Shown: positions 1 through 47,898 of the stretch, piece after piece
How positions within the stretch are numbered: the stretch's first letter is position 1
How the letters are laid out: each line of letters opens with the position of its first letter
Sequence record: OR896829.1
Reading direction: 5' to 3' (one strand)
Length of the DNA: 50,761 nt
Source: Escherichia phage MatMar
Made by a program: the position numbers and the translations under genes
The notes under the pieces: generated by a model
Databases searched by the model: none
What the model was told of the DNA's origin: nothing
Seen by the model: the letters and a program-made list of their open reading frames with translations, nothing else

Positions 1-1569
1 ATGCTTATTTGGGAAGATTTAACAGCGGCGCAGAAACGCGCCATTAAGGAAATGAGCGAGCATTCATTCGAAAAGATGATTCGAATCTGGTTCCAGCTAC
101 TCCAGGGGCAAAAGTTTTTAGGTAACTGGCATTTCAGCTACCTGTGCAGCGAAGTAGAGAAAATCATCAAAGGCGAATCACAAAACGTGATTTTCAATAT
201 AACCCCTGGTAGTGGTAAAACCGAGATATTTTCGATCCATATGTCACCTTATGCGTCACTAAAAAGCAAGAAGGTGCGAAATCTGAATCTTTCGTTTAGT
301 GACGGACTTGTGCAGCAGAATAGCAACAGGATTAAGGAGATTATTGGATCTCCGGAATGGCAGGAACTATGGCCTGGCAAACTGGCTAAGGCCAGCGCAA
401 AAGACCTGATAGTCACTGAGAAAGGGAAAGTTAAATTGCAGGTTAATTCCCGCTCTATTGGTGGACAGGTAACTGGCTTGCGCGGCGGCTACATGGATGA
501 TGGCTTTACTGGTATGCTGGTTCTTGATGATCCAGATAAACCAGACGACCAGTTATCAAAGGTTAAGCGCGAAGCCGGACACATGCGCCTGAAAAACACC
601 GTGCGATCACGTCGAATGAAAGACACCACGCCGATTGTAATGGTTCAGCAGCGGCTACACGTCAATGATTCGACTTGGTTTATGACGAATGGCGGTATGG
701 GCGGCATCAAGTTTAAGGTCGTGAGCATTCCGGCGCTCGTTACCGAGGATTATCGGGAAACGTTGCCTGACTGGTTGAAACCTGAGTTTGACCGCGACGT
801 GTTAAGCAGCAAGCCAGTGTATATTGATGGCGTGGCGCATTACTCCTTCTGGCCTGCAAAGGAAAGCGCGGAGGAATTGCTTGCCCTGCGGAATGCAGAT
901 CCTTACACGTTCGCAAGCCAGTACCAGCAGCATCCTATCGCGCTTGGTGGAAACGTGTTTAAGGTGGAGTGGTTCCAATATTACGGCGGCGGGGATAGGG
1001 CAACCGTTCAGAAGCCAGATCGCTTTGAGTACACATTCATTACCGTTGATACCGCTCAGAAAACAGGAGAACTTAACGACTATTCTGTGATCTGCTATTG
1101 GGGGATGTATAAAAACCGCGTTTACTTCATTGATGGCGTTCGCGGAAAGTGGGAAGCGCCGGAACTGGAAACAAATTTTGTAGCGTTCGTTAATCAATGC
1201 TGGAAGCGAAACAAGGAGTGCGGAACGTTGCGCCGCATACACGTAGAAGACAAATCATCGGGAACTGGCCTGATCCAGAGTGCAGCTAAAAAGTTGCCAA
1301 TTGCCATCAATCCGGTGCAGCGCGACAAGGACAAGGTAACGCGAGCTATGGACGCAGCGCCAGTAATGAAGGCTGGACGTGTGGCATTACCTGAATCACA
1401 CCCCATGCTTGATGAGATACTTTCAGAGGTTGCGGCTTTTACGTTCGATGATAGCCATCCACATGATGATATTGTCGACACACTGGTTGATGCCGTTAAC
1501 CTTGAAATGAATATGGCAGATGATCCGGTTGCTCGCATGAAAAAACTGGCAGGTCTACGCAATAAATAG
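1..1569 (+). CDS. terminase large subunit
   Basis: 522 aa; P-loop NITPGSGKT and Walker-B-like LVLDDPD in N-terminal half; lies directly after terS-like gene (wrapping) and before portal; ATG at window position 1. Confidence 0.8.
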   Translation: MLIWEDLTAAQKRAIKEMSEHSFEKMIRIWFQLLQGQKFLGNWHFSYLCSEVEKIIKGESQNVIFNITPGSGKTEIFSIHMSPYASLKSKKVRNLNLSFSDGLVQQNSNRIKEIIGSPEWQELWPGKLAKASAKDLIVTEKGKVKLQVNSRSIGGQVTGLRGGYMDDGFTGMLVLDDPDKPDDQLSKVKREAGHMRLKNTVRSRRMKDTTPIVMVQQRLHVNDSTWFMTNGGMGGIKFKVVSIPALVTEDYRETLPDWLKPEFDRDVLSSKPVYIDGVAHYSFWPAKESAEELLALRNADPYTFASQYQQHPIALGGNVFKVEWFQYYGGGDRATVQKPDRFEYTFITVDTAQKTGELNDYSVICYWGMYKNRVYFIDGVRGKWEAPELETNFVAFVNQCWKRNKECGTLRRIHVEDKSSGTGLIQSAAKKLPIAINPVQRDKDKVTRAMDAAPVMKAGRVALPESHPMLDEILSEVAAFTFDDSHPHDDIVDTLVDAVNLEMNMADDPVARMKKLAGLRNK

Positions 1570-1595
1570 CACGAATTGCTAAAAGAAAGTATAAT
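1564..1595 (+). repeat. 22-bp AAATAGCAC element, GAATTG variant, overlapping terL stop; TATAAT at atypical 8-bp distance
   Basis: aaatagcacgaattgctaaaag then tataat at 1590-1595; read directly. Confidence 0.6.
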
Positions 1596-6183: not shown

Positions 6184-6203
6184 TTTAACAAAAAGTGCTA
6201 TCA
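6184..6203 (-). repeat. 22-bp AAATAGCAC element, leftward orientation inside rightward late region
   Basis: + strand reads tttaacaaaaagtgctat; no good -10 on the - strand (TATTCA). Confidence 0.6.
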
Positions 6204-6205
6204 TG

Positions 6206-6235
6206 AGGCTGTTACTTGTTAACAGCCTTTTTTAT
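6206..6235 (+). terminator. terminator-like hairpin upstream of capsid gene
   Basis: ggctgtta cttgt taacagcc followed by ttttttat. Confidence 0.5.
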
Positions 6236-6247
6236 AGGAGAAAAATC

Positions 6248-9870: not shown

Positions 9871-9897
9871 ACAAGGGGCATTGCGCCCCTTTTTTCG
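9871..9897 (+). terminator. rho-independent terminator-like hairpin
   Basis: aggggcattgcgcccct followed by tttttt. Confidence 0.55.
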
Positions 9898-9932
9898 TTC
9901 CTGTAGAATCTATCAAACAAGTCATTCAGACT

Positions 9933-9953
9933 TTTAACAAAAAATGCTATTTA
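9933..9953 (-). repeat. 22-bp element variant (ATAGCAT), leftward orientation, abutting RBS of chaperone gene
   Basis: + strand reads ttttaacaaaaaatgctattt immediately before AAGGAG and ATG 9967. Confidence 0.55.
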
Positions 9954-10281: not shown

Positions 10282-10592
10282 GGCGCGCGGTTTACCTGTT
10301 TTATCAGAAGCCACCGACAGACGCAGAGCTTGAAGCGGTCGGATTAACACGCGCCGACTACGAAGGCGAGGAGCCGCCGGAGGTTATTTTCGATGAAAGC
10401 ATGATGCAGTCATGGGATGTTTTTTGTGCAATGCAAACGCAGTGGAGAAGCGCCGGATCTGGTGCTTACGGATTTGACTATAATGTTTTGCCGATGTTGT
10501 TCAGAATCTATAAAATAGAAGATGAAGAAATGGCCTTAAACGATTTGCGAATCATGGAACAAAAAGCATTAGAAATGATGCACCAAAAATAG
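9967..10592 (+). CDS. tail assembly chaperone -1 frameshift fusion product (gpGT-like), predicted
   Basis: slippery heptamer A AAG GGT at 10272-10278 just before the TAA stop; -1 frame is open from 10179 to TAG at 10590-10592. Confidence 0.45.
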
Positions 10593-16053: not shown

Positions 16054-16059
16054 ACAAAA

Positions 16060-16089
16060 AGAGTCGCGCGTTGCGCGGCTTTTTTTTCG
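16060..16089 (+). terminator. terminator-like GC hairpin plus T-run
   Basis: agtcgcgcgttgcgcggc followed by tttttttt. Confidence 0.45.
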
Positions 16090-16109
16090 TCCGTATAATG
16101 TAAACACGC

Positions 16110-16133
16110 AAATAGCACAAAAGGTAAAAAAAC
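16110..16133 (+). repeat. degenerate copy of the AAATAGCAC element directly upstream of the J-like gene
   Basis: aaatagcacaaaaggtaaaaaaac abutting ATG 16134; preceded by TATAAT at 16094-16099. Confidence 0.4.
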
Positions 16134-19100
16134 ATGGCTAAAAATATTATAACTGGCAGTAAGGGTGGGTCGAAAAAACCTTACGTGCCTAAAGAGCTTG
16201 AAGATAACCTGATTTCAATAAACAAAATTAAAATCCTGCTTGCCGTATCCGATGGTGAGTGTGACGCGGATTTCTCATTACGTGATCTGTATCTTGATGA
16301 TGTTCCGGTTATCGCTGACGACGGAACTGTAAACTACCCAGGCGTTAAAGCAGAGTTTAGGCCAGGAACGCAGGATCAGGAATACATTCAGGGTTTTACT
16401 GACACGTCAAACGAGGTAATCATCAATCGAGATTTGACTACAAATACGCCATATGTTTTGTCGGTAACGAATAAGACGCTTTCCGCAATACGCATCAAAA
16501 TGCTAATGCCAGTGGGTATTAAGCAGGAGGATAACGGCGACCTAGTGGGCGTTACCGTTACATATGCAGTTGATATGGCGGTTGATGGTGATTCATACAA
16601 AGAAGTAATGATCGACACCATTAACGGCAAGACGCGCACCGGATACGACCGTAGCCGACGCATTGACTTGCCGAAATTCAATGAGCGTGTTTTGCTTCGC
16701 GTTCGCCGCGTTACGCCTGACAGCACAACGTCGAAGGTTACAGACCTGATCCGCATACAGAGTTACGCCGAGGTAATTGATGCAAAATTCCGTTACCCTC
16801 TGACTGGGCTTGTTTACGTCGAGTTTGACAGCGAACTGTTCCCTAACCAGATCCCTAACATTTCAATTAAAAAGAAATGGAAGTTGATTCAGGTTCCCAG
16901 CAATTACGATCCTGTATCTCGTCGGTATTCTGGAACATGGGACGGAACATTTAAAAAAGCGTGGTCAAATAATCCGGCATGGGTTCTTTACGATTTGGTT
17001 ACTAATCAGCGTTATGGACTTGATCAACGAGAATTGGGAATACAGATCGACAAGTGGAGTCTATACGAGGCTGGGGTGTATTGTGATCAGATGGTTCCAG
17101 ATGGCAAGGGAGGAACAGAGCCGCGCTACCTATGCGATATGGTGATTCAAAGCCAGATTGAGGCTTATCAGCTTATTCGTGACATTTGCTCAATCTTCCG
17201 AGGAATGACTTTTTGGAATGGCGAGAGCTTGTCTGTAGTGGTGGATAAACCGCGCGAGCCATCATACATCTTTACAAACGACAACGTAATTAATGGAGAT
17301 TTTCAGTACACGAGCGCCAGCGAAAAGAGCATGTACACTCAATGCAACGTTACGTTTGACGATGAGCAAAACATGTATCAACAGGACGTTGAGGGCGTAT
17401 TTGACACTGAGGCGGCGTTACGTTTTGGCTACAATCCAACAAGTATCACGGCGATTGGTTGTACCCGTCGAAGCGAAGCGAATCGACGCGGACGCTGGAT
17501 ACTGAAAACCAACCTGCGCAGCCAAACGGTAAACTTTGCCACCGGGCTGGAAGGGATGATCCCATCTATCGGTGACGTTATCGCGATTTCTGATAACTTC
17601 CTGAGCAGCAACTTAACGCTCAACCTATCAGGGCGCGTAATGGAAGTTTCCGGCTTGCAGGTATTCGTTCCGTTTAAGATTGACGCTAGACCAGGTGATT
17701 TCATTATCATCAACAGACCGGACGGAAAACCAGTTAAGCGCACAATCTCAAAAGTCAGCGCGGACGGAAAAACCATTGAGTTAAACGTAGGGTTCGGATT
17801 CGACGTAAAACCGGACACCGTATTTGCAATCGACCGAACAGACCTTGCGTTGCAACAGTACGTTGTAACAGGAATCAGCAAGGGTGACACTGAGGAAGAA
17901 TTTACCTACTCGATTACGGCGGTTGAATACGATCCTAACAAATACGACGAAATTGATTATGGCGTAAACATTGATGATCGTCCGATCTCAATCGTGCAGC
18001 CGGACATCATGCAAGCACCGGAAAATGTTCAGGTGTCGTCATACTCCCGTGTTGTCCAGGGTGTTAGCGTTGAGACGATGGTTGTGTCGTGGGATAAAGT
18101 GCCTTATGCGTCACTGTATGAAATGCAATGGCGAAAAGGTGATGGCAACTGGCTAAATACGCCGCGCACAGCGAACAAAGAGACGGAAGTAGAAGGAATT
18201 TATTCAGGGAACTATCAAGTAAGGGTCAGATCTGTTTCAGCTTCCGGCAGTACATCAGCATGGTCGAAGATTGCAACAGCTTCCCTGACTGGTAAAGTTG
18301 GCGAGCCAGGCGCGCCAGTTAACTTAACCGCATCAGATAATGAAGTTTTCGGCATTCGTATTAAATGGGGCATGCCAGAAGGAAGCGGAGACACGGCCTA
18401 CATTGAGCTTCACCAATCGCCAGACGGAACGGTTGAAAACTCAAGCCTGTTAACGCTGATCCCATACCCGCAATATGAATACTGGCACAGTACACTACCA
18501 GCGGGTCAGGTTGTCTGGTATAGAATCCGCAGCGTTGACAGAATCGGCAACGTTTCTAGCTGGACTGATTTTGTTCGTGGCATGGCATCAGATGATGTTG
18601 AATCTGTTTTAGGAGATATTCTTGATAAGATTTTTGATAGCGAAGCAGGGCAAGAAATCAAGGAGAACGCCATCGAAAGCGCGAACAAGATCAAAGACCA
18701 GGCGCAGGCAATAATCCAGAACGCTTTGGCGATTGACGCTAACTTGAAATGGACGCGAGTACAGAACGGAAAGCGAAAGGCTGAATATGGTCATGCTGTT
18801 CAGTTGATCGCAAATGAGACTGAGGCGCGAGTAACTCAAATCGAAGAATTGAGGGCTTCAATTGATGGCGAGATAACATCAAGCATCAAGACAGTTCAGG
18901 AGGCAATCGCCACTGAATCAGAGACACGAGCAACTCAAATTCAGCAGCTTGATTCTAAATTCACGAAAGAAATCGACGGCGTGCGCAAGGATACTTCTGC
19001 AAGCATTAGCGATGTAAGGCAGACAATCACTAACGAGTCAGAAGCGCGAGCGCAAGCGGTACAACAGCTTGATGCAAAATTCACCAAAGAGATTAATGAT

Positions 19101-20934: not shown

Positions 20935-20979
20935 ACTATACAAGATCTTGAACATCGAGTTTAGCAAAAAGTGCTATTT
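20935..20979 (-). promoter_or_regulatory. AAATAGCAC module (TTGCTA variant) with TATAGT box 21 bp downstream, upstream of lipoprotein operon
   Basis: - strand reads aaatagcactttttgctaaac N21 tatagt then RBS and ATG 20903. Confidence 0.45.
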
Positions 20980-21358: not shown

Positions 21359-21386
21359 TTGACTAAACGCATCAAATAGCTAAAAT
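21359..21386 (+). promoter_or_regulatory. sigma70-like promoter (TTGACT N16 TAAAAT) upstream of exonuclease operon
   Basis: read directly; spacer contains AAATAGC. Confidence 0.45.
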
Positions 21387-21415: not shown

Positions 21416-22477
21416 ATGAATAAATTTATGGCTTACACCAGCGCAGAAATGAGCAACGAGCTTTATCACGATCCAGAAGCATGGACGGCTGAATATGTTA
21501 GCGGTTCAAGTCTGGCAGAGATTTACAGCACTTGCCCTGCTGCGTGGAAGTTCAAGCCGCGCGACGATAAGAGCAAGGCGCTCGTTTTCGGTACGCAGTC
21601 GCATACCAACTTCGAAAGCAAGGAGCTATTTGATAAAACTTACCGCCGTGCGCCAGCGCCGGAAGACTTCAAAGAGTTGATCACAAGCCAAACGGCATTG
21701 GCTGCAAAGCTGAAATCTTTTGGCCTGAAAGGGACAAGCGGAAAGGCTTACCCCGACCTTATCAAAATGATGGTTGATTGTGGCGAAGACCTTAACATCA
21801 TGTGGTTAATCGACATGATCGCAGAAAGCCAGGCCAGAGCCGACGGCGTACAGTTAATCGACGCGAAAGATTACGATGCTTGCGTGGCAATGCGCCAGGT
21901 TCTGGAATCCATACCGGAACATAACGCCTGCATGAACAGCCCGACGGCACAGCGTGAATTGTCGTTATTCGGCGAAATCAACGGCGTAAAAGTTAAAGTT
22001 CGATGTGATCACGTTGACGTAGTGAAAAACGTCACCGCCACGCTGATTGATGGTTATGACGAAAAAGGTCAGCCAATTTGTCGTGATATTGTTTATCCAG
22101 AAGCAGTGGTGATCACAGACTACAAAACAACAATGAGCGCAAATCCTATGGAGTTTATGCGACTGGCTTACAACCACGGTTATTATTTGAAAATGGCACT
22201 GCAACATGATTTATTCAGGAAGGCATATCCAGATGAGAAGCGACCTGTAGTTATGCGCCTGTTAGCCCAGGAGAAGAAGGAGCCTTATCTACCGCTGGCT
22301 TTCCGCATGAACAGCGAGCAATTGAAAATAGGCCGAGTCCAGTATGTTAGCGTGATCCAACAGTTTGCTATGTGCCAGCATCATGACGTATGGCCTGCGT
22401 ATGCAAACGGTGAGCCGGAAGTTTGCTTGGATACGCCTGAATTTGTGCGCCGACAGTTCAAGCAGTATCTGATTTAA
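21416..22477 (+). CDS. PD-(D/E)XK exonuclease (RecE / lambda-exo-like), putative
   Basis: 353 aa; VVITDYKTT D-x-K motif; followed by annealing protein and SSB genes. Confidence 0.55.
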   Translation: MNKFMAYTSAEMSNELYHDPEAWTAEYVSGSSLAEIYSTCPAAWKFKPRDDKSKALVFGTQSHTNFESKELFDKTYRRAPAPEDFKELITSQTALAAKLKSFGLKGTSGKAYPDLIKMMVDCGEDLNIMWLIDMIAESQARADGVQLIDAKDYDACVAMRQVLESIPEHNACMNSPTAQRELSLFGEINGVKVKVRCDHVDVVKNVTATLIDGYDEKGQPICRDIVYPEAVVITDYKTTMSANPMEFMRLAYNHGYYLKMALQHDLFRKAYPDEKRPVVMRLLAQEKKEPYLPLAFRMNSEQLKIGRVQYVSVIQQFAMCQHHDVWPAYANGEPEVCLDTPEFVRRQFKQYLI

Positions 22478-22484
22478 ACCGCAC

Positions 22485-22520
22485 AAATAGCTAAACAAAT
22501 GATTAGCGCGGTGTTATAAT
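22485..22520 (+). repeat. short variant of the element (AAATAGCTAAAC) with TATAAT about 21 bp downstream inside a small hairpin
   Basis: aaatagctaaac ... cgcgg tgttataattcg ccgcg. Confidence 0.35.
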
Positions 22521-22553
22521 TCGCCGCGCAGGTTAACAAATAAGGGATTAATT

Positions 22554-26702: not shown

Positions 26703-26718
26703 CTGTAATTTTCTCCTG

Positions 26719-26738
26719 TATAGCACTTTTTGCTAATG
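26719..26738 (+). repeat. AAATAGCAC element (TTGCTA variant) abutting tail-fibre RBS, oriented opposite to the gene
   Basis: + strand reads tatagcactttttgctaatg; no -10-like box at N22. Confidence 0.55.
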
Positions 26739-27794: not shown

Positions 27795-27800
27795 TTAACT

Positions 27801-28277
27801 TTAGCTATTTGTGCTTTTTGGTTCTTTGTAAAATATTCCGCCAGGTTCATAATCGCGCATCGTTACCACTCGCAACATCTCACGACGTTCGCAACGTGTA
27901 ACAAGCGGCTTACCGTTTGAGTCGAATTTTAGATCCGGGCGACAGAATGATGCGCGATAGCCTTTACAGCCATTATATTTGTAGTCATTATGCACGCGTT
28001 GTGCGCCCATCGCTGAAATCATCCCGCGCTTGCGCCACATATTTACAGTTTGCTGGGATACTCCCAATCGACGAGCCATATTTGCCACACCTCCGAAATA
28101 CTCCAGAAGAATATCAAGGCGAGCGGTCAGTCCGGCTTTTACTTCTTCTTTCAGTATGTAATATCCGGTGCGCGGCTTGCGTGGCTTCTTGTCCTTGCCG
28201 CGTCGCGTTCCGTTGTTGCCGTTCAATGTTCTCTTGTCAATCTCACCAGTATAGGCCGCGATTCGCTTTTCTTTCAT
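27801..28277 (-). CDS. HTH DNA-binding protein (putative transcription regulator)
   Basis: 158 aa from ATG at 28277 with GAGGTG RBS (ORF track start 28436 is an upstream alternative codon); helix-turn-helix MARRLGVSQQTVNMWRKRG; basic N-terminal region. Confidence 0.5.
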   Translation of the reverse strand: MKEKRIAAYTGEIDKRTLNGNNGTRRGKDKKPRKPRTGYYILKEEVKAGLTARLDILLEYFGGVANMARRLGVSQQTVNMWRKRGMISAMGAQRVHNDYKYNGCKGYRASFCRPDLKFDSNGKPLVTRCERREMLRVVTMRDYEPGGIFYKEPKSTNS

Positions 28278-28287
28278 TTTGCACCTC

Positions 28288-28330
28288 ATAGCACTTTTTG
28301 TTAAAAATAGCTTTTGAACGTGTGTATTAT
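28288..28330 (+). promoter_or_regulatory. AAATAGCAC module with TATTAT box 21 bp downstream, upstream of helicase gene
   Basis: atagcactttttgttaaaa N21 tattat acacgcc. Confidence 0.45.
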
Positions 28331-30402: not shown

Positions 30403-30808
30403 TAAAGGTGACTATCTGGAGTTTTACGAAAGAGATCCAACAGATACACTAAAAGAAGAATCGCACCAGATAGGTGCGTTTCAATGGGTGACTTATGCTC
30501 ATCCTGAATTGCTGGCCTGGCATACGAAAAACGAAGGAGACAAGGGAATCGCCACTGCAATGATGGATCAGCAAGCCGGACTCGTTAAGGGTGTGAGTGA
30601 CTTCATCATCCTGATTGGATTAAAAGGCCGCTACCCGTTTGCGGCTATTGAAATGAAGCGCGTCAACAAGTCCGGCAAGGGGAAGGCTTCTCCGGTCAGC
30701 AAAGAGCAAAAAGCCTTCTTGCGCCGCGTGCGCGAGCTTGGCGGCTTCGCTGCCGTCACCTACGGTTACAAGCAATTCATGATCGCAGTTGATTACATGC
30801 TGAAATAG
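30389..30808 (+). CDS. VRR-NUC domain nuclease, putative
   Basis: 139 aa; GVSDFIIL ... AAIEMKR ... EQKAFL pattern of PD-(D/E)XK VRR-NUC proteins; overlaps helicase 3' end. Confidence 0.5.
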   Translation: MAMTDKGDYLEFYERDPTDTLKEESHQIGAFQWVTYAHPELLAWHTKNEGDKGIATAMMDQQAGLVKGVSDFIILIGLKGRYPFAAIEMKRVNKSGKGKASPVSKEQKAFLRRVRELGGFAAVTYGYKQFMIAVDYMLK

Positions 30809-30848
30809 CACTTTTTGTTAAAACAGGCGCGATGGATTGCGCCATAAT
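30803..30848 (+). promoter_or_regulatory. AAATAGCAC module: 22-bp box overlapping stop codon, GC hairpin spacer, CATAAT at N22
   Basis: aaatagcactttttgttaaaac aggcgcgatggattgcgc cataat. Confidence 0.5.
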
Positions 30849-31586: not shown

Positions 31587-31844
31587 ATGCAAAAAGAAAG
31601 AAGCGTTTATTTAAATGAGTGTGGCGAATGGTTGCTTTATCGCGCTATGGTTTGCGATGCGCTTGATAAAAACCCTAACGTGAAAAAGATGATTGATTGC
31701 GATCCGTGGGAATTTTCAAGCGCATTGGATATGAGCTTTGAGGAGACAAAAAAACTCCCGCTTGAAAAATGGCATGAACAGATCAGAAATGACATGCAAG
31801 AATTTGTCGATTCGTGGAATTTTCAGCACGGAATGATCCACTAA
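31587..31844 (+). CDS. hypothetical protein
   Basis: 85 aa ORF. Confidence 0.45.
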   Translation: MQKERSVYLNECGEWLLYRAMVCDALDKNPNVKKMIDCDPWEFSSALDMSFEETKKLPLEKWHEQIRNDMQEFVDSWNFQHGMIH

Positions 31845-31887
31845 CAGCACTTTTTGTTAAAACGCCCGGCATTTTGTCGGGCATAAT
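31842..31887 (+). promoter_or_regulatory. AAATAGCAC module (CAGCAC variant), hairpin spacer, CATAAT at N22
   Basis: taacagcactttttgttaaaac gcccggcattttgtcggg cataat. Confidence 0.5.
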
Positions 31888-33780: not shown

Positions 33781-33844
33781 TTTTTCAGCACAATGTTTAA
33801 AATGCAATCATCACTATTGACATTTGAATAAAGAGGATCTAAAA

Positions 33845-35199: not shown

Positions 35200-35245
35200 A
35201 ATATACCCGACTATAAGCCGGGCGTTTTAACAAAAAGTGCTATTC
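35200..35245 (-). promoter_or_regulatory. AAATAGCAC module, hairpin spacer, TATATT at N22
   Basis: - strand: gaatagcactttttgttaaaac gcccggcttatagtcggg tatatt; box overlaps stop of upstream gene. Confidence 0.5.
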
Positions 35246-37366: not shown

Positions 37367-37413
37367 ATGTTACCGCACCAATACTACCCTTATTTGTCAA
37401 AAAGTGCTATTTG
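37367..37413 (-). promoter_or_regulatory. AAATAGCAC module (TTGACA variant), hairpin spacer, TAACAT at N22
   Basis: - strand: aaatagcactttttgacaa N22 taacat acaccgcacc. Confidence 0.45.
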
Positions 37414-38043: not shown

Positions 38044-38089
38044 ATTATGCCCGACTCAAGGTCGGGCGTTTTAACAAAAAGTGCTATTT
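38044..38089 (-). promoter_or_regulatory. AAATAGCAC module, hairpin spacer, CATAAT at N22
   Basis: - strand: aaatagcactttttgttaaaac gcccgaccttgagtcggg cataat. Confidence 0.5.
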
Positions 38090-39514: not shown

Positions 39515-39727
39515 TCATTTCTTATTTTTCATCTTAAATTTATGGCCTGGAACACCAGCACCAATATATCCATCGTTGTATTCCATTAAATAAAGGTGAA
39601 GACCATTATCTGAAATTACATGAGGATCTTCTTTGAGATTTCCCATTAGTGGATATTCTTTTTCGCGCGTGAATTTCCAAATTGAGTTATAAGTTTCTAC
39701 GCATTTAAGTTTTAATTGCTTTGCCAT
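39515..39727 (-). CDS. hypothetical protein
   Basis: 70 aa ORF. Confidence 0.45.
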   Translation of the reverse strand: MAKQLKLKCVETYNSIWKFTREKEYPLMGNLKEDPHVISDNGLHLYLMEYNDGYIGAGVPGHKFKMKNKK

Positions 39728-39924
39728 TAGATGATCTCCATGTATGTTTCAAAGCCATTTAACTTGAACAGGCCGTTTTCACATTTGCGAACGTTCCAAG
39801 TTAGCCCTGAGTGGTACGCCTCCATATCATCAAGGTCAATGGTGATTTCAGCACCTTTCTTAAACAAACCTTTTTCGTGAGACTTGTCGCGCTTAACAAC
39901 TTTAACATCAACCTGATTTTCCAT
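39727..39924 (-). CDS. hypothetical protein
   Basis: 65 aa from ATG at 39924 with GAGGA RBS. Confidence 0.4.
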   Translation of the reverse strand: MENQVDVKVVKRDKSHEKGLFKKGAEITIDLDDMEAYHSGLTWNVRKCENGLFKLNGFETYMEII

Positions 39925-39957
39925 CTTTAAATCCTCGCATTCGTTGTCGATGCGTGT

Positions 39958-40003
39958 AATGTACAGGAACACGAGGATTGAGTTTTAACAAAAAGTGCTA
40001 TTT
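39958..40003 (-). promoter_or_regulatory. AAATAGCAC module, TACATT at N22
   Basis: - strand: taaatagcactttttgttaaaac N19 tacatt acacgcatcg. Confidence 0.5.
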
Positions 40004-41041: not shown

Positions 41042-41087
41042 AATGTACCCGATCAGAATGATTCGGTTTTAACAAAAAGTGCTATTC
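41042..41087 (-). promoter_or_regulatory. AAATAGCAC module, TACATT at N22, with no gene upstream of it
   Basis: - strand: atggaatagcactttttgttaaaac cgaatcattctgatcggg tacatt acacacatcg, then RBS and ATG 41006. Confidence 0.5.
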
Positions 41088-41681: not shown

Positions 41682-41709
41682 TTGACACGCATGAAATAGC
41701 AATTATAAT
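41682..41709 (+). promoter_or_regulatory. consensus sigma70-like promoter (TTGACA N16 TATAAT) for rightward early operon
   Basis: read directly; spacer contains AAATAGCA. Confidence 0.55.
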
Positions 41710-41740
41710 GGCCTGCAACTGACCAACAGGAGGAATGACA

Positions 41741-42202
41741 ATGAGTCAGAAAACATCGAAAGACTATTGCGACTGGTTGCGAGAGCTTGGTCGACGCCTT
41801 GCAAGCGGCGAGATTGTAGAGCATAAAATGTCAGTTCTCGACCTTGCCGGAATGTTAAACGGCGACGACTACTACAAGGTGACAAAGAATCAGGCATACA
41901 GCCGCACAATAATCAACCGCGTGCCGGAAGTGAAAGCGGTTGGAAAGGTGCGAATCAGAACGGAAGAAACGGAAGACGATAAGTTTTACGTTTTCAGCCT
42001 GAATCGCGACGTTAAGCGCAAGGTGATTACGAGCGAGGACTTGCCAGCAGTCCAGGCAAAGGCGGTTGAAAAGTTCGCCGCTCGCATTCTTGCATCAATG
42101 CCGAACGTTACCGACATGCAAGGCGATAAACTGGCTGGAGCTTGCGAAGGAATAAGTCGCTACCAGGAAATGATCCGCAATCTTGTTAACGAGGAGAAAT
42201 GA
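41741..42202 (+). CDS. hypothetical protein
   Basis: 153 aa from ATG 41741 with AGGAGG RBS. Confidence 0.45.
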   Translation: MSQKTSKDYCDWLRELGRRLASGEIVEHKMSVLDLAGMLNGDDYYKVTKNQAYSRTIINRVPEVKAVGKVRIRTEETEDDKFYVFSLNRDVKRKVITSEDLPAVQAKAVEKFAARILASMPNVTDMQGDKLAGACEGISRYQEMIRNLVNEEK

Positions 42203-42203
42203 A

Positions 42204-42467
42204 ATGAATAAGGCATTAATGGCGGTTTTTATGGCAACAGCATTCCTGACCGGATGTAATGGTGATGGTGCTTACGTCGATGCACAAATGGCTAACCCTG
42301 CCGATACTTACAACGTCAGAAAACTATTTACAGTCGATGGTTGCGATGTGTACAGGTTCAGCGATAGCCGATACGTGTACTTTACCAACTGCCAGGGTAG
42401 CGCAAACTGGTCAACTAACGAAGGCAAGTCGGTTAGTCACTACCAAAACACAACAAACGTGAAATAG
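42204..42467 (+). CDS. lipoprotein (second in genome)
   Basis: 87 aa from ATG 42204; signal peptide with lipobox LTGC. Confidence 0.5.
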   Translation: MNKALMAVFMATAFLTGCNGDGAYVDAQMANPADTYNVRKLFTVDGCDVYRFSDSRYVYFTNCQGSANWSTNEGKSVSHYQNTTNVK

Positions 42468-42507
42468 CACTTTTTGTTAAAACTCAAAAACGATAACCAG
42501 GCATAAT
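42462..42507 (+). promoter_or_regulatory. AAATAGCAC module, CATAAT at N22
   Basis: aaatagcactttttgttaaaac tcaaaaacgataaccagg cataat acacacatag. Confidence 0.5.
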
Positions 42508-42892: not shown

Positions 42893-42960
42893 TAAGCCAG
42901 GCCGCAAAATCCGGCCTATAACCAGAAATAATTTTGTTAAACCAATCAGGAGAAAGCACC

Positions 42961-43854
42961 ATGTTAAAACTTGCTGACATTAAATTCCCGATCACCTTCG
43001 AATCTCGCGGCATTGGTCATTACATTTTTACTGATGAAAAAACATGCCATAAAGTTGATTTGCATAGCTACAAGCGTGCGCCATCAGACATGGAGATTGA
43101 ACACTTCATTGATGCACACAATACGCACTACAACGCCCTTAAAGACTATGGCTATGCAATGCCAGGATATACCAGCTTCCACTACAAGCCATATAAAGGC
43201 CAGGTGTTGCCAGTGCGCTCACCGGAACGCGCAGAGATTCCGATGGTCGATATGAAAACATGCGACTACAAAAAGCTGTGGTGCTTAAGTGTGGACAATA
43301 TCAAGTACCCGATCACGTTCTACACGGTTGGTAATTCAACGATTCGCTTCACATCGCGCGACAATGGCGTTTATAGCGATGGTCAGAAATCAGAGTTGAA
43401 AGTTGATTTCTTTGTTGATGGTCACAATAGATACAATCCACACAACGAAAAAGATAAGGTGTACTACGTGGAAGATATTACAAAACACTTATTTGGAGAA
43501 ACACCATTCGGCGGCGGGAAGACGTCAATTCATCAAATCATTGGCGAGGAGATCCACAAAGCGGCTGCCGAAATGAAAGCGCCTGGAGGATGGCGTATTG
43601 ACAAGAGCGCCTTTGCCTATCAAGAAATCGTAACGCAGGGCGCAATTGAAGATATGCCAGTTGCAGCCACGCTAAAAGGAGTCCGGCTTGATGATGGTAC
43701 ATGGTATGAATTAACGGCTACACCAAAGACGATCGAAATTCATGATGATGTTGTTATCCTCCTGCTTCACTATGGCGGCGCTAAAAACCGGACGGTTGCA
43801 GGTGAGATCAGCATCAAGCGCGGAACGATGGTTAAGTGGAAGGTGAAAGTATAA
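42961..43854 (+). CDS. hypothetical protein with internal two-fold repeat
   Basis: 297 aa from ATG 42961 with AGGAGA RBS; repeated motif KFPITFESRG / KYPITFYTVG. Confidence 0.45.
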   Translation: MLKLADIKFPITFESRGIGHYIFTDEKTCHKVDLHSYKRAPSDMEIEHFIDAHNTHYNALKDYGYAMPGYTSFHYKPYKGQVLPVRSPERAEIPMVDMKTCDYKKLWCLSVDNIKYPITFYTVGNSTIRFTSRDNGVYSDGQKSELKVDFFVDGHNRYNPHNEKDKVYYVEDITKHLFGETPFGGGKTSIHQIIGEEIHKAAAEMKAPGGWRIDKSAFAYQEIVTQGAIEDMPVAATLKGVRLDDGTWYELTATPKTIEIHDDVVILLLHYGGAKNRTVAGEISIKRGTMVKWKVKV

Positions 43855-43897
43855 ATAGCACGAATTGTTAAAACTCAATGGTGGGGCCAGGTATAAT
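43853..43897 (+). promoter_or_regulatory. AAATAGCAC module (GAATTG variant), TATAAT at N21
   Basis: aaatagcacgaattgttaaaac ... ggcc aggtataat ggcc. Confidence 0.5.
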
Positions 43898-44892: not shown

Positions 44893-45050
44893 CTTGGTTG
44901 CTTTTAATCTTTGTCACAAGTTACAACTCCGCAGCTATTGAGTCGCAGGAGTTCCACGGCGAATCAAGATGCCAGGAAGCGCGAAAGCAAGTTGTTCTCA
45001 ACATGTCAGATAGTGGGAAGGATGTAACAGCGTTATGCGTTCGTAAATAG
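44889..45050 (+). CDS. hypothetical small protein (53 aa) with hydrophobic N-terminus
   Basis: ATGA overlap with upstream gene; stop TAG embedded in the 22-bp element; not in ORF track. Confidence 0.35.
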   Translation: MTWLLLIFVTSYNSAAIESQEFHGESRCQEARKQVVLNMSDSGKDVTALCVRK

Positions 45051-45090
45051 CACTTTTTGTTAAAGCATTCCATCGGGCTTGCTTTATAGT
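45045..45090 (+). promoter_or_regulatory. AAATAGCAC module, hairpin spacer, TATAGT at N22
   Basis: aaatagcactttttgttaaagc N20 tatagt. Confidence 0.45.
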
Positions 45091-45894: not shown

Positions 45895-46481
45895 AAAGAG
45901 ACATCATTATCCTGAATGGGCCACCTGGAGTGGGAAAGGACACCATTGCGGCATACCTTACCGGACACCGATACCCAGCAGTTAAGGCATCATTCAAACA
46001 GCCAATGTTCGATATTGCGTTCTCCATGCTTGGTGTGTACAGATACGATGAATTTATGGACTTGTACAACGACCGGGAACAGAAAGAAAAGCCTCAAGTG
46101 ATATTGCAGGGAAAATCACCGCGCCAGTTCATGATCTGGATTAGCGAGGAGGTAATGAAGCCAGCATTTGGGGAACAGTATTTCGGCTGGAGAATGGTTG
46201 AGCAGATCCACGAAATGTACCGCGACCTTGCAATTATCGTAACAGACGGCGGCTTTCCAGAAGAAATCAAGCCACTGATTAAAGCAGGTCACAAAGTGCA
46301 CATTTGCCGACTGCATCGCGAGGGGTACACGTTCGATGGCGACTCGCGAAACTATATCGACATGGGCGACTATCATCACCGCCTCAAGCATTACGATTTC
46401 ACGTTGCACGATGGCGAGCCAGAAAAGACGGCAGAGGAAATCATCGAAACCGTGCAGTGGTATTTCACAAAAATCAAATAG
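45891..46481 (+). CDS. P-loop kinase (nucleotide or polynucleotide kinase-like)
   Basis: 196 aa; Walker A GPPGVGKDT at residues 9-17. Confidence 0.45.
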   Translation: MKRDIIILNGPPGVGKDTIAAYLTGHRYPAVKASFKQPMFDIAFSMLGVYRYDEFMDLYNDREQKEKPQVILQGKSPRQFMIWISEEVMKPAFGEQYFGWRMVEQIHEMYRDLAIIVTDGGFPEEIKPLIKAGHKVHICRLHREGYTFDGDSRNYIDMGDYHHRLKHYDFTLHDGEPEKTAEEIIETVQWYFTKIK

Positions 46482-46521
46482 CACGAATTGCTAAACGCGG
46501 GGCGCAATGCTCCGCTATAAT
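46476..46521 (+). promoter_or_regulatory. AAATAGCAC module (GAATTG variant), TATAAT at N22
   Basis: aaatagcacgaattgctaaac gcggggcgcaatgctccgc tataat. Confidence 0.5.
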
Positions 46522-47531: not shown

Positions 47532-47828
47532 ATGAAAATGGCAACTATGCGCAAAATGCTTATCAATGGCTTTGAAAGAGAAATTCGCCGTCGAGGCTGG
47601 GATGATTCTAAAAATTCACCTTACACTATCAATCGCGGAGAGTATAAATCAGTTCGACATTTTGCACGATGCCTGGCTGGATGCTACGACCTTGAGCACC
47701 CTTTCCCGTTCATGAACGAAACGCTAACCGAAATGATGGAAGAGGCCGCAACTCAAGATCGCCCACTGACGCAACATGATTTTGATGAGTTTGCGCACTG
47801 GGAAATCGAATGTGCGCTATATAAATAG
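47532..47828 (+). CDS. hypothetical protein
   Basis: 98 aa; alternative ATG at 47538 has better RBS spacing. Confidence 0.45.
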   Translation: MKMATMRKMLINGFEREIRRRGWDDSKNSPYTINRGEYKSVRHFARCLAGCYDLEHPFPFMNETLTEMMEEAATQDRPLTQHDFDEFAHWEIECALYK

Positions 47829-47868
47829 CACTTTTTGTTAAAACCAGCTTCGGCTGGTTTTGTATTAT
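47823..47868 (+). promoter_or_regulatory. AAATAGCAC module, hairpin spacer, TATTAT at N22
   Basis: aaatagcactttttgttaaaac cagcttcggctggttttg tattat atgcgcatcg. Confidence 0.5.
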
Positions 47869-47898
47869 ATGCGCATCGACAACAGAGGAGGCCGGAAC

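Follow-up and report, generated by a model that had tools for sequence, protein, structure and literature searches.

A marbox-like repeat of T1-like phages and its conserved copy in front of the tail-tip gene of Escherichia phage MatMar

Introduction

The J-like (tail-tip) gene of Escherichia phage MatMar (OR896829.1) starts at 16134 and is directly preceded by a TATAAT hexamer and a short sequence that keeps one half of a box repeated elsewhere in the genome. Is this sequence a real copy of the box, which part of the box matters, and what might bind it? A first-pass annotation had read the J copy as one of many degenerate copies and had proposed AAATAGC(AC) as the functional core of the box, reused in several promoter architectures. 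The window analyzed here, that is the whole stretch of 50,761 nucleotides (50.8 kb), is the complete genome of a T1-like phage (Drexlerviridae, Tempevirinae, Warwickvirus) with 99% identity to Escherichia phage Jahat_MG145 and an order colinear with that of phage WaterSpirit.

A 21-nt direct repeat with the consensus aaATAGCACnnnTTGnTAAAA and the subgroups A, T and G was described in phages TLS, T1, Rtp and Rogue1 by German et al. 2024 (PMC11447400). In that re-annotation of phage TLS the copies are intergenic, run along the direction of transcription and lie ~76 nt upstream of start codons; an UP-element role was raised, and the function of the repeat was listed as an open question for T1-like phages. 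The window box and this repeat are the same element, with the same consensus, the same inner variants (TTT, GAA, AAA) and the same orientation with transcription. Absent from the published account are a link to the marbox, a fixed 18-bp gap to the −10 hexamer, operator-like copies at late genes and reversed copies.

On balance, we favor the reading that the repeat is a marbox for the host proteins MarA, SoxS or Rob, which would activate early and middle promoters from a class II position and would occupy an operator-like position at late genes. The repeat itself was already known; its proposed identity as a marbox, the class II geometry with its fixed spacing and the late copies in operator-like positions appear to be new in the searchable literature, in which our searches found no link between marboxes and phages.

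Results

The phage box matches both marbox definitions

The marbox is a non-palindromic site with the core GCAnnWWnTGnnAAA, for which the Grainger laboratory allows at most two mismatches (PMC12052159); an older 20-mer consensus reads AYnGCACnnWnnRYYAAAY (PMC3709825). A scan of the window with a position weight matrix made from 13 canonical copies, which also served to rank degenerate ones, revealed 17 strong copies of AAATAGCAC(TTTTT/GAATT)G(T/C)TAAA, and 17 window copies fit the 21-nt repeat consensus. Perfect matches to the 15-nt marbox core number 17, compared with 1.45 ± 1.2 in shuffled sequence, and the 20-mer is matched perfectly three times and with one mismatch 15 times (0 and 1.4 expected). 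The string AAATAGCAC itself occurs 13 times (0.54 expected). Two E. coli sites read much as the phage boxes do, that of the mar operator (reverse complement ATGCCACGTTTTGCTAAATC) and that of micF, ACAGCACTGAATGTCAAAAC; the box sequence ATAGCACTTTTTGTTAAAAC, like the J copy, is a candidate MarA/SoxS/Rob site.

A sequence logo drawn from 92 boxes (five genomes) agrees with the 20-mer marbox at every specified position except the final Y, and the variable positions are the degenerate positions of the marbox: 11 and 12 are A/T only (WW), 16 is T/C (Y) and 10 is free. Information is concentrated in ATAGCAC and TTG-Y-TAAA, with GCAC and the G of TTG invariant. On these comparisons the conserved functional unit is the bipartite element GCA(C)-N-TG-NN-AAA (GCA(C)...TG..AAA), not AAATAGC. 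The heptamer proposed as functional core is missing from five canonical copies, the invariant 5′ bases of the J copy are AGCAC, and the element is bipartite.

Under the mismatch count of the Grainger laboratory the canonical copies have none and the copies at J, 22481 and 27814 have one each. Such imperfect matches are not enriched as a class, counter to the earlier picture of many degenerate copies: the 15-nt core is matched with one mismatch 24 times (25.5 expected) and with two mismatches 209 times (226 expected). Each degenerate copy therefore has to be judged by its position and conservation.

Phage T1 carries at least 24 box copies, and in viral contigs the multi-copy box is limited to ~50-kb T1-like genomes. 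A TAG stop codon occupies box positions 4–6 in ten boxes, and in 13 of the 17 a same-strand frame of at least 40 codons stops within the first six box bases (for example at 1564, 30803, 42462, 45045, 46476 and 47823 on the plus strand and at 38089 and 37412 on the minus strand). Genes thus end inside the next promoter, so that the conservation of AAATAG is partly maintained by upstream stop codons.

Fourteen boxes share the layout of the micF class II promoter

In class II marbox promoters the site is forward, overlaps the −35 region and is centred between −36 and −55 (PMC12052159), and the class II promoter micF has been solved with RamA bound at ~−41 (PMC8811837). In MG1655, the micF site is separated by 18 bp from its 20-mer to the −10 hexamer TAGAAT and has AAAACA at the −35 position. 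Fourteen window boxes share this layout relative to their predicted starts, down to the consensus, the orientation, the 18-bp gap from 20-mer to −10 and AAAAC(A) in place of a −35. On the plus strand these canonical boxes lie at 28286–28305 (helicase gene), 30803–30822, 31842–31861, 42462–42481, 43853–43872, 45045–45064, 46476–46495 and 47823–47842; on the minus strand they lie at 41068–41087, 39984–40003, 38070–38089, 37393–37412, 35226–35245 and 20960–20979. All were identified by weight matrix, core match and −10 layout and are oriented toward the downstream genes, and these 14 copies follow the published rule of an intergenic site placed ~76 nt from the start codon in the direction of transcription.

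Of the 85 perfect sites in the MatMar window, T1, tunus, Motto (labelled Pseudomonas) and Vc1 (labelled Vibrio), 67 have a −10-like hexamer 19–20 nt past the core, with a distance of exactly 20 nt in 58; chance alone would give ~2.4. The leaders of the box promoters share the sequence (C)ATCGA(C/A)AACGA right behind the predicted start, ~6–20 nt past the −10 (e.g. 47871–47882, and 39945–39956 on the minus strand), and those of T1 do likewise.

The earlier statement that the box is reused in several promoter architectures was borne out: ~14 copies are followed by a −10 at a distance of 18 bp, those of the capsid and portal genes overlap a promoter spacer or −35, and three lie just past a −10 (J, chaperone, tail fibre). 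The copies at J, 6203, 9952 and 26718 depart from the published positional rule; that at J ends 4 nt before the ATG and the other three are reverse-oriented.

The J copy is conserved downstream of a predicted promoter

The quoted letters upstream of J are present, with TATAAT at 16094–16099 and aaatagcacaaaaggtaaaaaaac at 16110–16133 on the plus strand; the box does follow TATAAT, with ten nucleotides (gtaaacacgc) between them that had gone unmentioned. Relative to the predicted start, the 20-mer (16112–16131) covers ~+7 to +26; its 15-nt core, GCACAAAAGGTAAAA (16115–16129), has one mismatch to GCAnnWWnTGnnAAA. The copy reads AAATAGCAC-AAA-AGG-TAAAA, with AGG for TTG and with a G before TAAAA where relatives have T; the J box of relatives reads AGCACAAAAGGTTAAAA or AGCACAAATTGTTAAAA. 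The 3′ half in MatMar thus carries one extra change, from GTTAAA to GTAAAA, which leaves the number of core mismatches at one.

The putative −10 is invariant as TA(T/C)AAT in 19 relatives and is also found in T1, Motto and Vc1. The −35-like hexamer TTGCGC (16071–16076, plus strand), 17 bp upstream of TATAAT, lies in the loop and 3′ arm of a hairpin; its TTG is invariant, and with 3 of 6 consensus positions it misses the 4-of-6 rule of the consensus scan and is weak. The hairpin (16056–16087, plus strand; 14-bp stem, loop UUG by folding) is of terminator type, has a T-run and follows the tail assembly gene; its stems covary in the 19 relatives with the loop TTG invariant, and a terminator is annotated there in T1. 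The order in the 19-relative alignment is the hairpin, 17 bp, TA(T/C)AAT, 12–14 nt, A-AGCAC-AAAAG-GTTAAAA and the ATG. The 5′ bases AGCAC are invariant in these 19 regions and are preceded by AAAT, AAAC, GTAC or AAAG.

A site with zero or one mismatch is present 14–17 nt past TATAAT in 30 of 30 distinct T1-like J-upstream regions, once in reverse (L014); the remaining ten of 40 distinct regions, which belong to distant J homologues, are without it. The T1 region carries AAATAGCACAAAAAGGTAAAC, and the site is missing at J in Motto and Vc1. Substitutions among the J sites are confined to core positions 4, 5, 8, 9, 11 and 12, and none falls on GCA, WW, G or AAA. With at least nine distinct changes, by our own count and treated as independent, restriction to 6 of 15 positions has a chance of ~3 in 10,000 without constraint. 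By alignment and position, the J copy is a real, orthologously conserved and slightly eroded copy of the T1-like 21-nt repeat.

A class II mode was rejected for the J copy as there is no −10 at 19–20 nt downstream; the nearest hexamers past the core, TATTAT (offset 15) and TATAAC (offset 18), already fall within the J gene. A minus-strand promoter-like site in the 5′ end of J was not conserved and was dropped. Judged by its placement downstream of TATAAT and next to a terminator, the J box is in an operator-like position.

Four further late-gene boxes overlap or follow predicted promoters

The portal gene has a forward box at 1564–1583 (plus strand) that overlaps the −35 and spacer of TATAAT (1590–1595) and ends a few bases ahead of it; the box is present in tunus and not in T1 or Motto. 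At the major capsid gene, a reverse box (6184–6203, minus strand) fills the 16-bp spacer of a sigma70-like promoter, which reads TTGACG-16-TATTAT in T1, TTGCAC-16-TATCAT in tunus and TTGAAC-16-TATATT in Motto, with the reverse box in every spacer. The tape-measure chaperone gene has a reverse box (9933–9952, minus strand) between TTGCGC-17-TAGAAT and the ribosome-binding site, found in tunus and T1 and not in Motto. The tail-fibre gene is encoded on the minus strand, and the box just before its ribosome-binding site (26718–26737, plus strand) is reversed relative to it; the tail-fibre box of T1 is downstream of TTGCAA-17-TGaTAAAAT.

These placements resemble pbpG, where a marbox within the promoter spacer overlaps the core promoter and represses: the phage late-gene boxes are in the spacer (capsid, portal) or just past the −10 (J, chaperone, tail fibre). 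Marboxes that overlap the core promoter also repress purA and hdeA. We know of no described chromosomal marbox at +7 to +26 that abuts a start codon.

Hairpins at 16056–16099 (J) and 9873–9917 (chaperone) both have an invariant loop TTG 17 bp before TATAAT or TAGAAT and covarying stems, and resemble fused terminator–promoter units. At the portal (1590–1625) and major capsid (6205–6240) genes, a −10-like hexamer lies 3–4 nt ahead of a terminator-like hairpin; transcripts begun at that −10 would miss the 5′ arm of the hairpin and escape termination, and read-through transcripts would stop. On the minus strand of 9904–9952, a conserved extended −10 (TGaTAGATT; TGaTAAGAT in T1) lies 20 nt past the chaperone reverse box and overlaps the plus-strand TAGAAT. 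The chaperone box region may be a bidirectional promoter with an RNA antisense to the major tail gene.

Other proposed copies and the AAATAGC heptamer

Two further imperfect copies stand out by position and conservation. At the exonuclease/annealing-protein junction, both aaatagctaaac (22485–22496) and TATAAT (22515–22520) are where the first-pass annotation had placed them, and the copy is genuine and conserved. The weight matrix aligned it, as well as the copy at 27819, in another register than had been assumed: the heptamer runs from the inner spacer into the 3′ half (GCAC-AAATA-GCTAAA), and the degenerate class II box lies at 22476–22495 on the plus strand, with the core GCACAAATAGCTAAA at 22481 and TG changed to AG. 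An extended −10 (TGtTATAAT, 22512–22520, plus strand) follows 19 nt past this core within a hairpin at 22506–22529 (GCGCGG...CCGCGC). Both AAATAGCTAA and the extended −10 are invariant from T1 to MatMar, the latter as G-T-G-n-T-A-T-n-A-T across 8 relatives, and the orthologous place in Motto and Vc1 carries a perfect box. By this record, the copy at 22476 is a conserved weak class II promoter. Its twin, a degenerate class II box at the regulator/primase junction (27800–27819, minus strand), has the same core GCACAAATAGCTAAA with TATCAT 20 nt downstream in a terminator-like hairpin; T1 has AATAGCATTTTTAGTTAAAA and TAACAT at that junction.

Two other proposed copies fared less well. Upstream of the holin gene, cagcacaatgtttaaaat is present (33786–33803, plus strand), but it is a look-alike rather than a real box copy: in the 20-mer register its GCAC-to-AAA spacing exceeds that of a box by one base, a −10 at offset 19–20 is missing, and it is not conserved in tunus or T1. 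It is probably not functional. The partial box ttttgttaaac is likewise present at 42932–42942 (plus strand), as a relic of the 3′ half (TTTTGTTAAAC) without GCAC. It lies in a clade-specific insert of ~52 nt (~42893–42944) that is found in MatMar and WaterSpirit and absent in tunus. The order within this insert (hairpin, −10 TATAAC, box, ribosome-binding site) resembles the J-type arrangement.

The AAATAGC heptamer occurs 30 times in the window (9.7 ± 3.2 expected), and 12 of the 30 are in canonical boxes. After masking of the 17 canonical boxes, the 4.4 kb of intergenic DNA retain seven copies compared with 1.49 ± 1.17, a number reached in 0 of 2000 shuffles; the heptamer is thus commoner than composition predicts, and the refuting test that the first-pass annotation had set does not go against it. 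Two of the seven are box variants (16110, 22485), two are in sigma70 spacers (21374, 41694), and three (10587, 39507 and 48998) share no context; that at 10587 is not conserved in tunus or T1.

Both sigma70 promoters named by the first-pass annotation do carry AAATAGC in their spacers: TTGACT-16-TAAAAT of the exonuclease gene (21359–21386, plus strand) and TTGACA-16-TATAAT of the right-arm early genes (41682–41709, plus strand). They are not part of the box element, having two core mismatches and a heptamer that is not conserved beyond close relatives, and we rejected them as marboxes on account of these mismatches and an AAA one base out of register. The exonuclease spacer reads AAATGGC in tunus and TAATGGC in T1, and the heptamer is absent in Motto and Vc1. 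That at 41682 is kept in tunus/L061 and not in Motto, in a comparison limited to two lineages as the viral-contig search for the gene at 41735–42202 gave one locus. The two spacers share a 13-mer, CGCAT[C/G]AAATAGC (21365–21380 and 41688–41700), shifted by 3 bp relative to the hexamers, which exceeds chance for two 16-nt spacers and is not conserved in T1, Motto or Vc1.

Candidate binders of the box

No MarA/SoxS/Rob-like phage protein was found among the six-frame open reading frames by profile and phmmer searches with approximate MarA, SoxS and Rob queries (best E-value 0.26), and Pfam and PHROGs scans of 30 early proteins revealed no regulator besides a Cro-like one. This protein (27801–28277, minus strand), the only core phage DNA-binding protein, has a single helix-turn-helix (HTH) and an all-alpha Cro-like model with a predicted local distance difference test (pLDDT) score of 86; its closest solved folds are Cro. 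Its recognition helix reads SQ-QTVNMW in MatMar, which groups with T1, and PYVTVRNAY or CCVRLTNAY in Motto and Vc1, with an indel, whereas the box consensus is identical. On this indirect evidence, the box also differs from an operator of a Cro/cI dimer in its unequal half-site conservation and in staying constant while the helix diverges. The most conserved part of the regulator is not the HTH but a disordered basic N-terminal segment, IDKRxxNGNNGTRRGxD, invariant from T1 to Vc1.

The first gene past the strongest early promoter (41735–42202) encodes a DUF7174 protein, whose model (pLDDT 79) has a helix-helix-helix-hairpin core and two long helices, with weak, non-significant winged-helix-like (PadR/MarR-like) matches. 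We rejected DUF7174 as a universal box binder, as two of the phages with boxes, T1 and Vc1, have no copy of it. The open reading frame at 39727–39972 (minus strand) has a Pfam match to PF25180, named "phage antiviral trigger protein Gp54" (E = 3e−38).

Motto and Vc1 have 17 and 12 perfect boxes, respectively, and both are without boxes before J and chaperone. These two phages are 82–88% identical over most of their length and are assigned to different host orders, which makes the host labels doubtful. Taken together, the lack of a MarA-like phage protein, the diverged regulator helix and the asymmetric sites make a host Mar/Sox/Rob-type protein the best candidate binder.

Discussion

The sequence match to the marbox, the promoter geometry and the pattern of conservation are direct observations on these genomes. 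On the marbox reading that we favor, the repeat would be an asymmetric bipartite site (GCAC, 7 bp, AAA) for the monomeric two-HTH activators MarA, SoxS and Rob. At ~14 early and middle promoters, the forward box overlaps the −35 region, with 18 bp (in some cases 17) between its end and a good −10, and the bound activator would contact sigma region 4 and the carboxy-terminal domain of the polymerase alpha subunit (alpha-CTD), taking the place of the −35 that these promoters lack. In front of the portal, major capsid, chaperone, J and tail-fibre genes, all five of them late, the box lies in or just past a sigma70-like promoter fused to the preceding terminator. Since this position excludes class II activation, a bound protein would most likely hinder RNA polymerase there, as at an operator.

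Several points weigh against this reading. The box has a partial dyad (TAGCA-N5-TG[C/T]TA) centred near −42, which would suit a phage dimer acting like lambda cI at PRM, and the queries for a phage-encoded homolog were approximate. Unstressed cells contain little MarA or SoxS, and Rob stays largely inactive until an inducer is present, which makes these proteins an odd dependence for a fast lytic phage. If Motto and Vc1 do infect the hosts on their labels, an equivalent factor would have to exist there under a host-factor model. Our searches of the literature found no mapped transcription starts for the T1 family, and the J promoter itself is predicted, with a weak −35 (3/6). Finally, MarA bound inside the core promoter of flgB P2 activates (PMC12781870), so that the direction of the effect at J and the other late genes, like the identity of the binder, is what we infer from the sequence comparisons.

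The same boxes could be operators of a phage protein, either the Cro-like regulator or an unrecognised early protein, binding as a dimer near −42, activating as lambda cI does at PRM and repressing where the box overlaps late promoters, with the likeness to the marbox convergent or coincidental. We consider this unlikely, although the partial dyad TAGCA-N5-TGCTA of the GAATT-type boxes, a core regulator gene with a confident HTH model (pLDDT 86) and Cro as its closest folds, the boxes at 28286 and 27819 that flank this gene, and the retention of boxes in phages labelled Vibrio and Pseudomonas all speak in its favor. The dyad is uneven, however: G6 is invariant and its partner is C in only 40%, C9 and T13 are conserved yet not complementary, and the flanks are A-rich on the same strand. 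The recognition helix diverges with an indel while the box is unchanged, the regulator gene is deep in the replication module away from a consensus sigma70 promoter, and a chance fit to both marbox definitions together with a spacing identical to that of micF is very unlikely. Direct reading of the box by RNA polymerase, as an UP-element-like alpha-CTD site with an unusual −35 substitute and with late copies as inert cassette leftovers, appears improbable. It would account for the A/T-rich flanks and the inner T-tract, has a precedent in the UP-element idea of German et al. 2024, and fits the frequent association of boxes with hairpins at gene junctions, as in T4-type mobile promoter cassettes (PMC2839356). 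An UP element is an A/T-only tract from −40 to −60 with no specific G/C core, to which the invariant GCAC and the G of TTG are foreign, and the conservation of late copies from T1 to MatMar and the position-specific constraint at J would be unexpected for inert relics.

For the J copy, the motif might be read in the mRNA rather than the DNA, as a translation-initiation region made of AAGG and an A-rich leader; most lineages do have AAAAGG 9–10 nt ahead of the ATG, and the motif reaches up to the start codon, but we give this little credence. Five relatives (L020, L021, L023, L035 and L047) have AAATTG in place of AAAAGG with a separate GGAGG and still keep a perfect box, so that the J box is not retained solely as a ribosome-binding site. 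AGCAC, ~20 nt upstream of the ATG, is invariant, and the L014, chaperone and tail-fibre boxes are reversed, which would give a different RNA. We regard as very improbable that AAATAGC itself is the functional core across promoter types, the two sigma70 spacers included. The excess of seven copies over 1.5 expected in box-masked intergenic DNA and the 13-mer shared by the two strongest sigma70 promoters argue for it; against it, the seven residual copies include two marbox variants with the heptamer in different registers, those at 10587, 39507 and 48998 have no common context, the first of them being unconserved in tunus and T1, the spacer heptamer is altered or lost in relatives, and AAATAG is frequently just the upstream stop codon.

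The marbox reading also permits a broader proposal, to which we give only tentative weight, that transcription of T1-like phages is wired mostly to host Mar/Sox/Rob, with a replication-driven titration timer that needs no phage regulator. One host protein would activate the ~14 promoters and occupy the five late operators; as each new genome adds ~20 near-consensus sites, the limited activator could be drained, so that early units would be turned off and late ones freed. On this proposal the yield of phage would vary with host stress (bile, salicylate, oxidants, or resistance mutations in marR or soxR).

Chromosomal marboxes differ from the phage boxes in their setting, as the latter are in a virulent phage, are present as 17 perfect copies per 50 kb and are far nearer to the consensus than most chromosomal sites, with binding in the phage predicted. 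T4 middle promoters have a MotA box at −30 and a good −10, and are served by sigma appropriation through AsiA and MotA. Like them, the box promoters combine a good −10 and the lack of a −35 with a conserved box placed upstream at a fixed distance; T4, however, encodes both activator and co-activator, of which none is detectable in MatMar, and the box differs in sequence and position. PeSL elements of T4-type phages are plain sigma70 early promoters with a stem-loop, and share with the box the form of a short cassette repeated at junctions, often with a hairpin. The stoperators of mycobacteriophage L5 are bound by the prophage repressor and act in one orientation only; like the boxes, they are asymmetric sites within transcribed regions, but in MatMar, a virulent phage, late copies are found in either orientation.

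The real weak copies (at J and at the exonuclease–annealing and regulator–primase junctions) can be told from look-alikes, which aids the annotation of T1-like genomes. The match to the most thoroughly studied stress-regulator site of E. coli, combined with the exact micF geometry, makes the open function of the repeat (PMC11447400) directly testable. If the marbox reading is true, a large family of virulent coliphages reads the antibiotic and oxidative-stress state of its host. Several members of the T1-like family are used or proposed for therapy, and TLS enters through TolC, a product of the mar regulon. The capacity to support growth of these phages could then differ among multidrug-resistant marR or soxR mutants.

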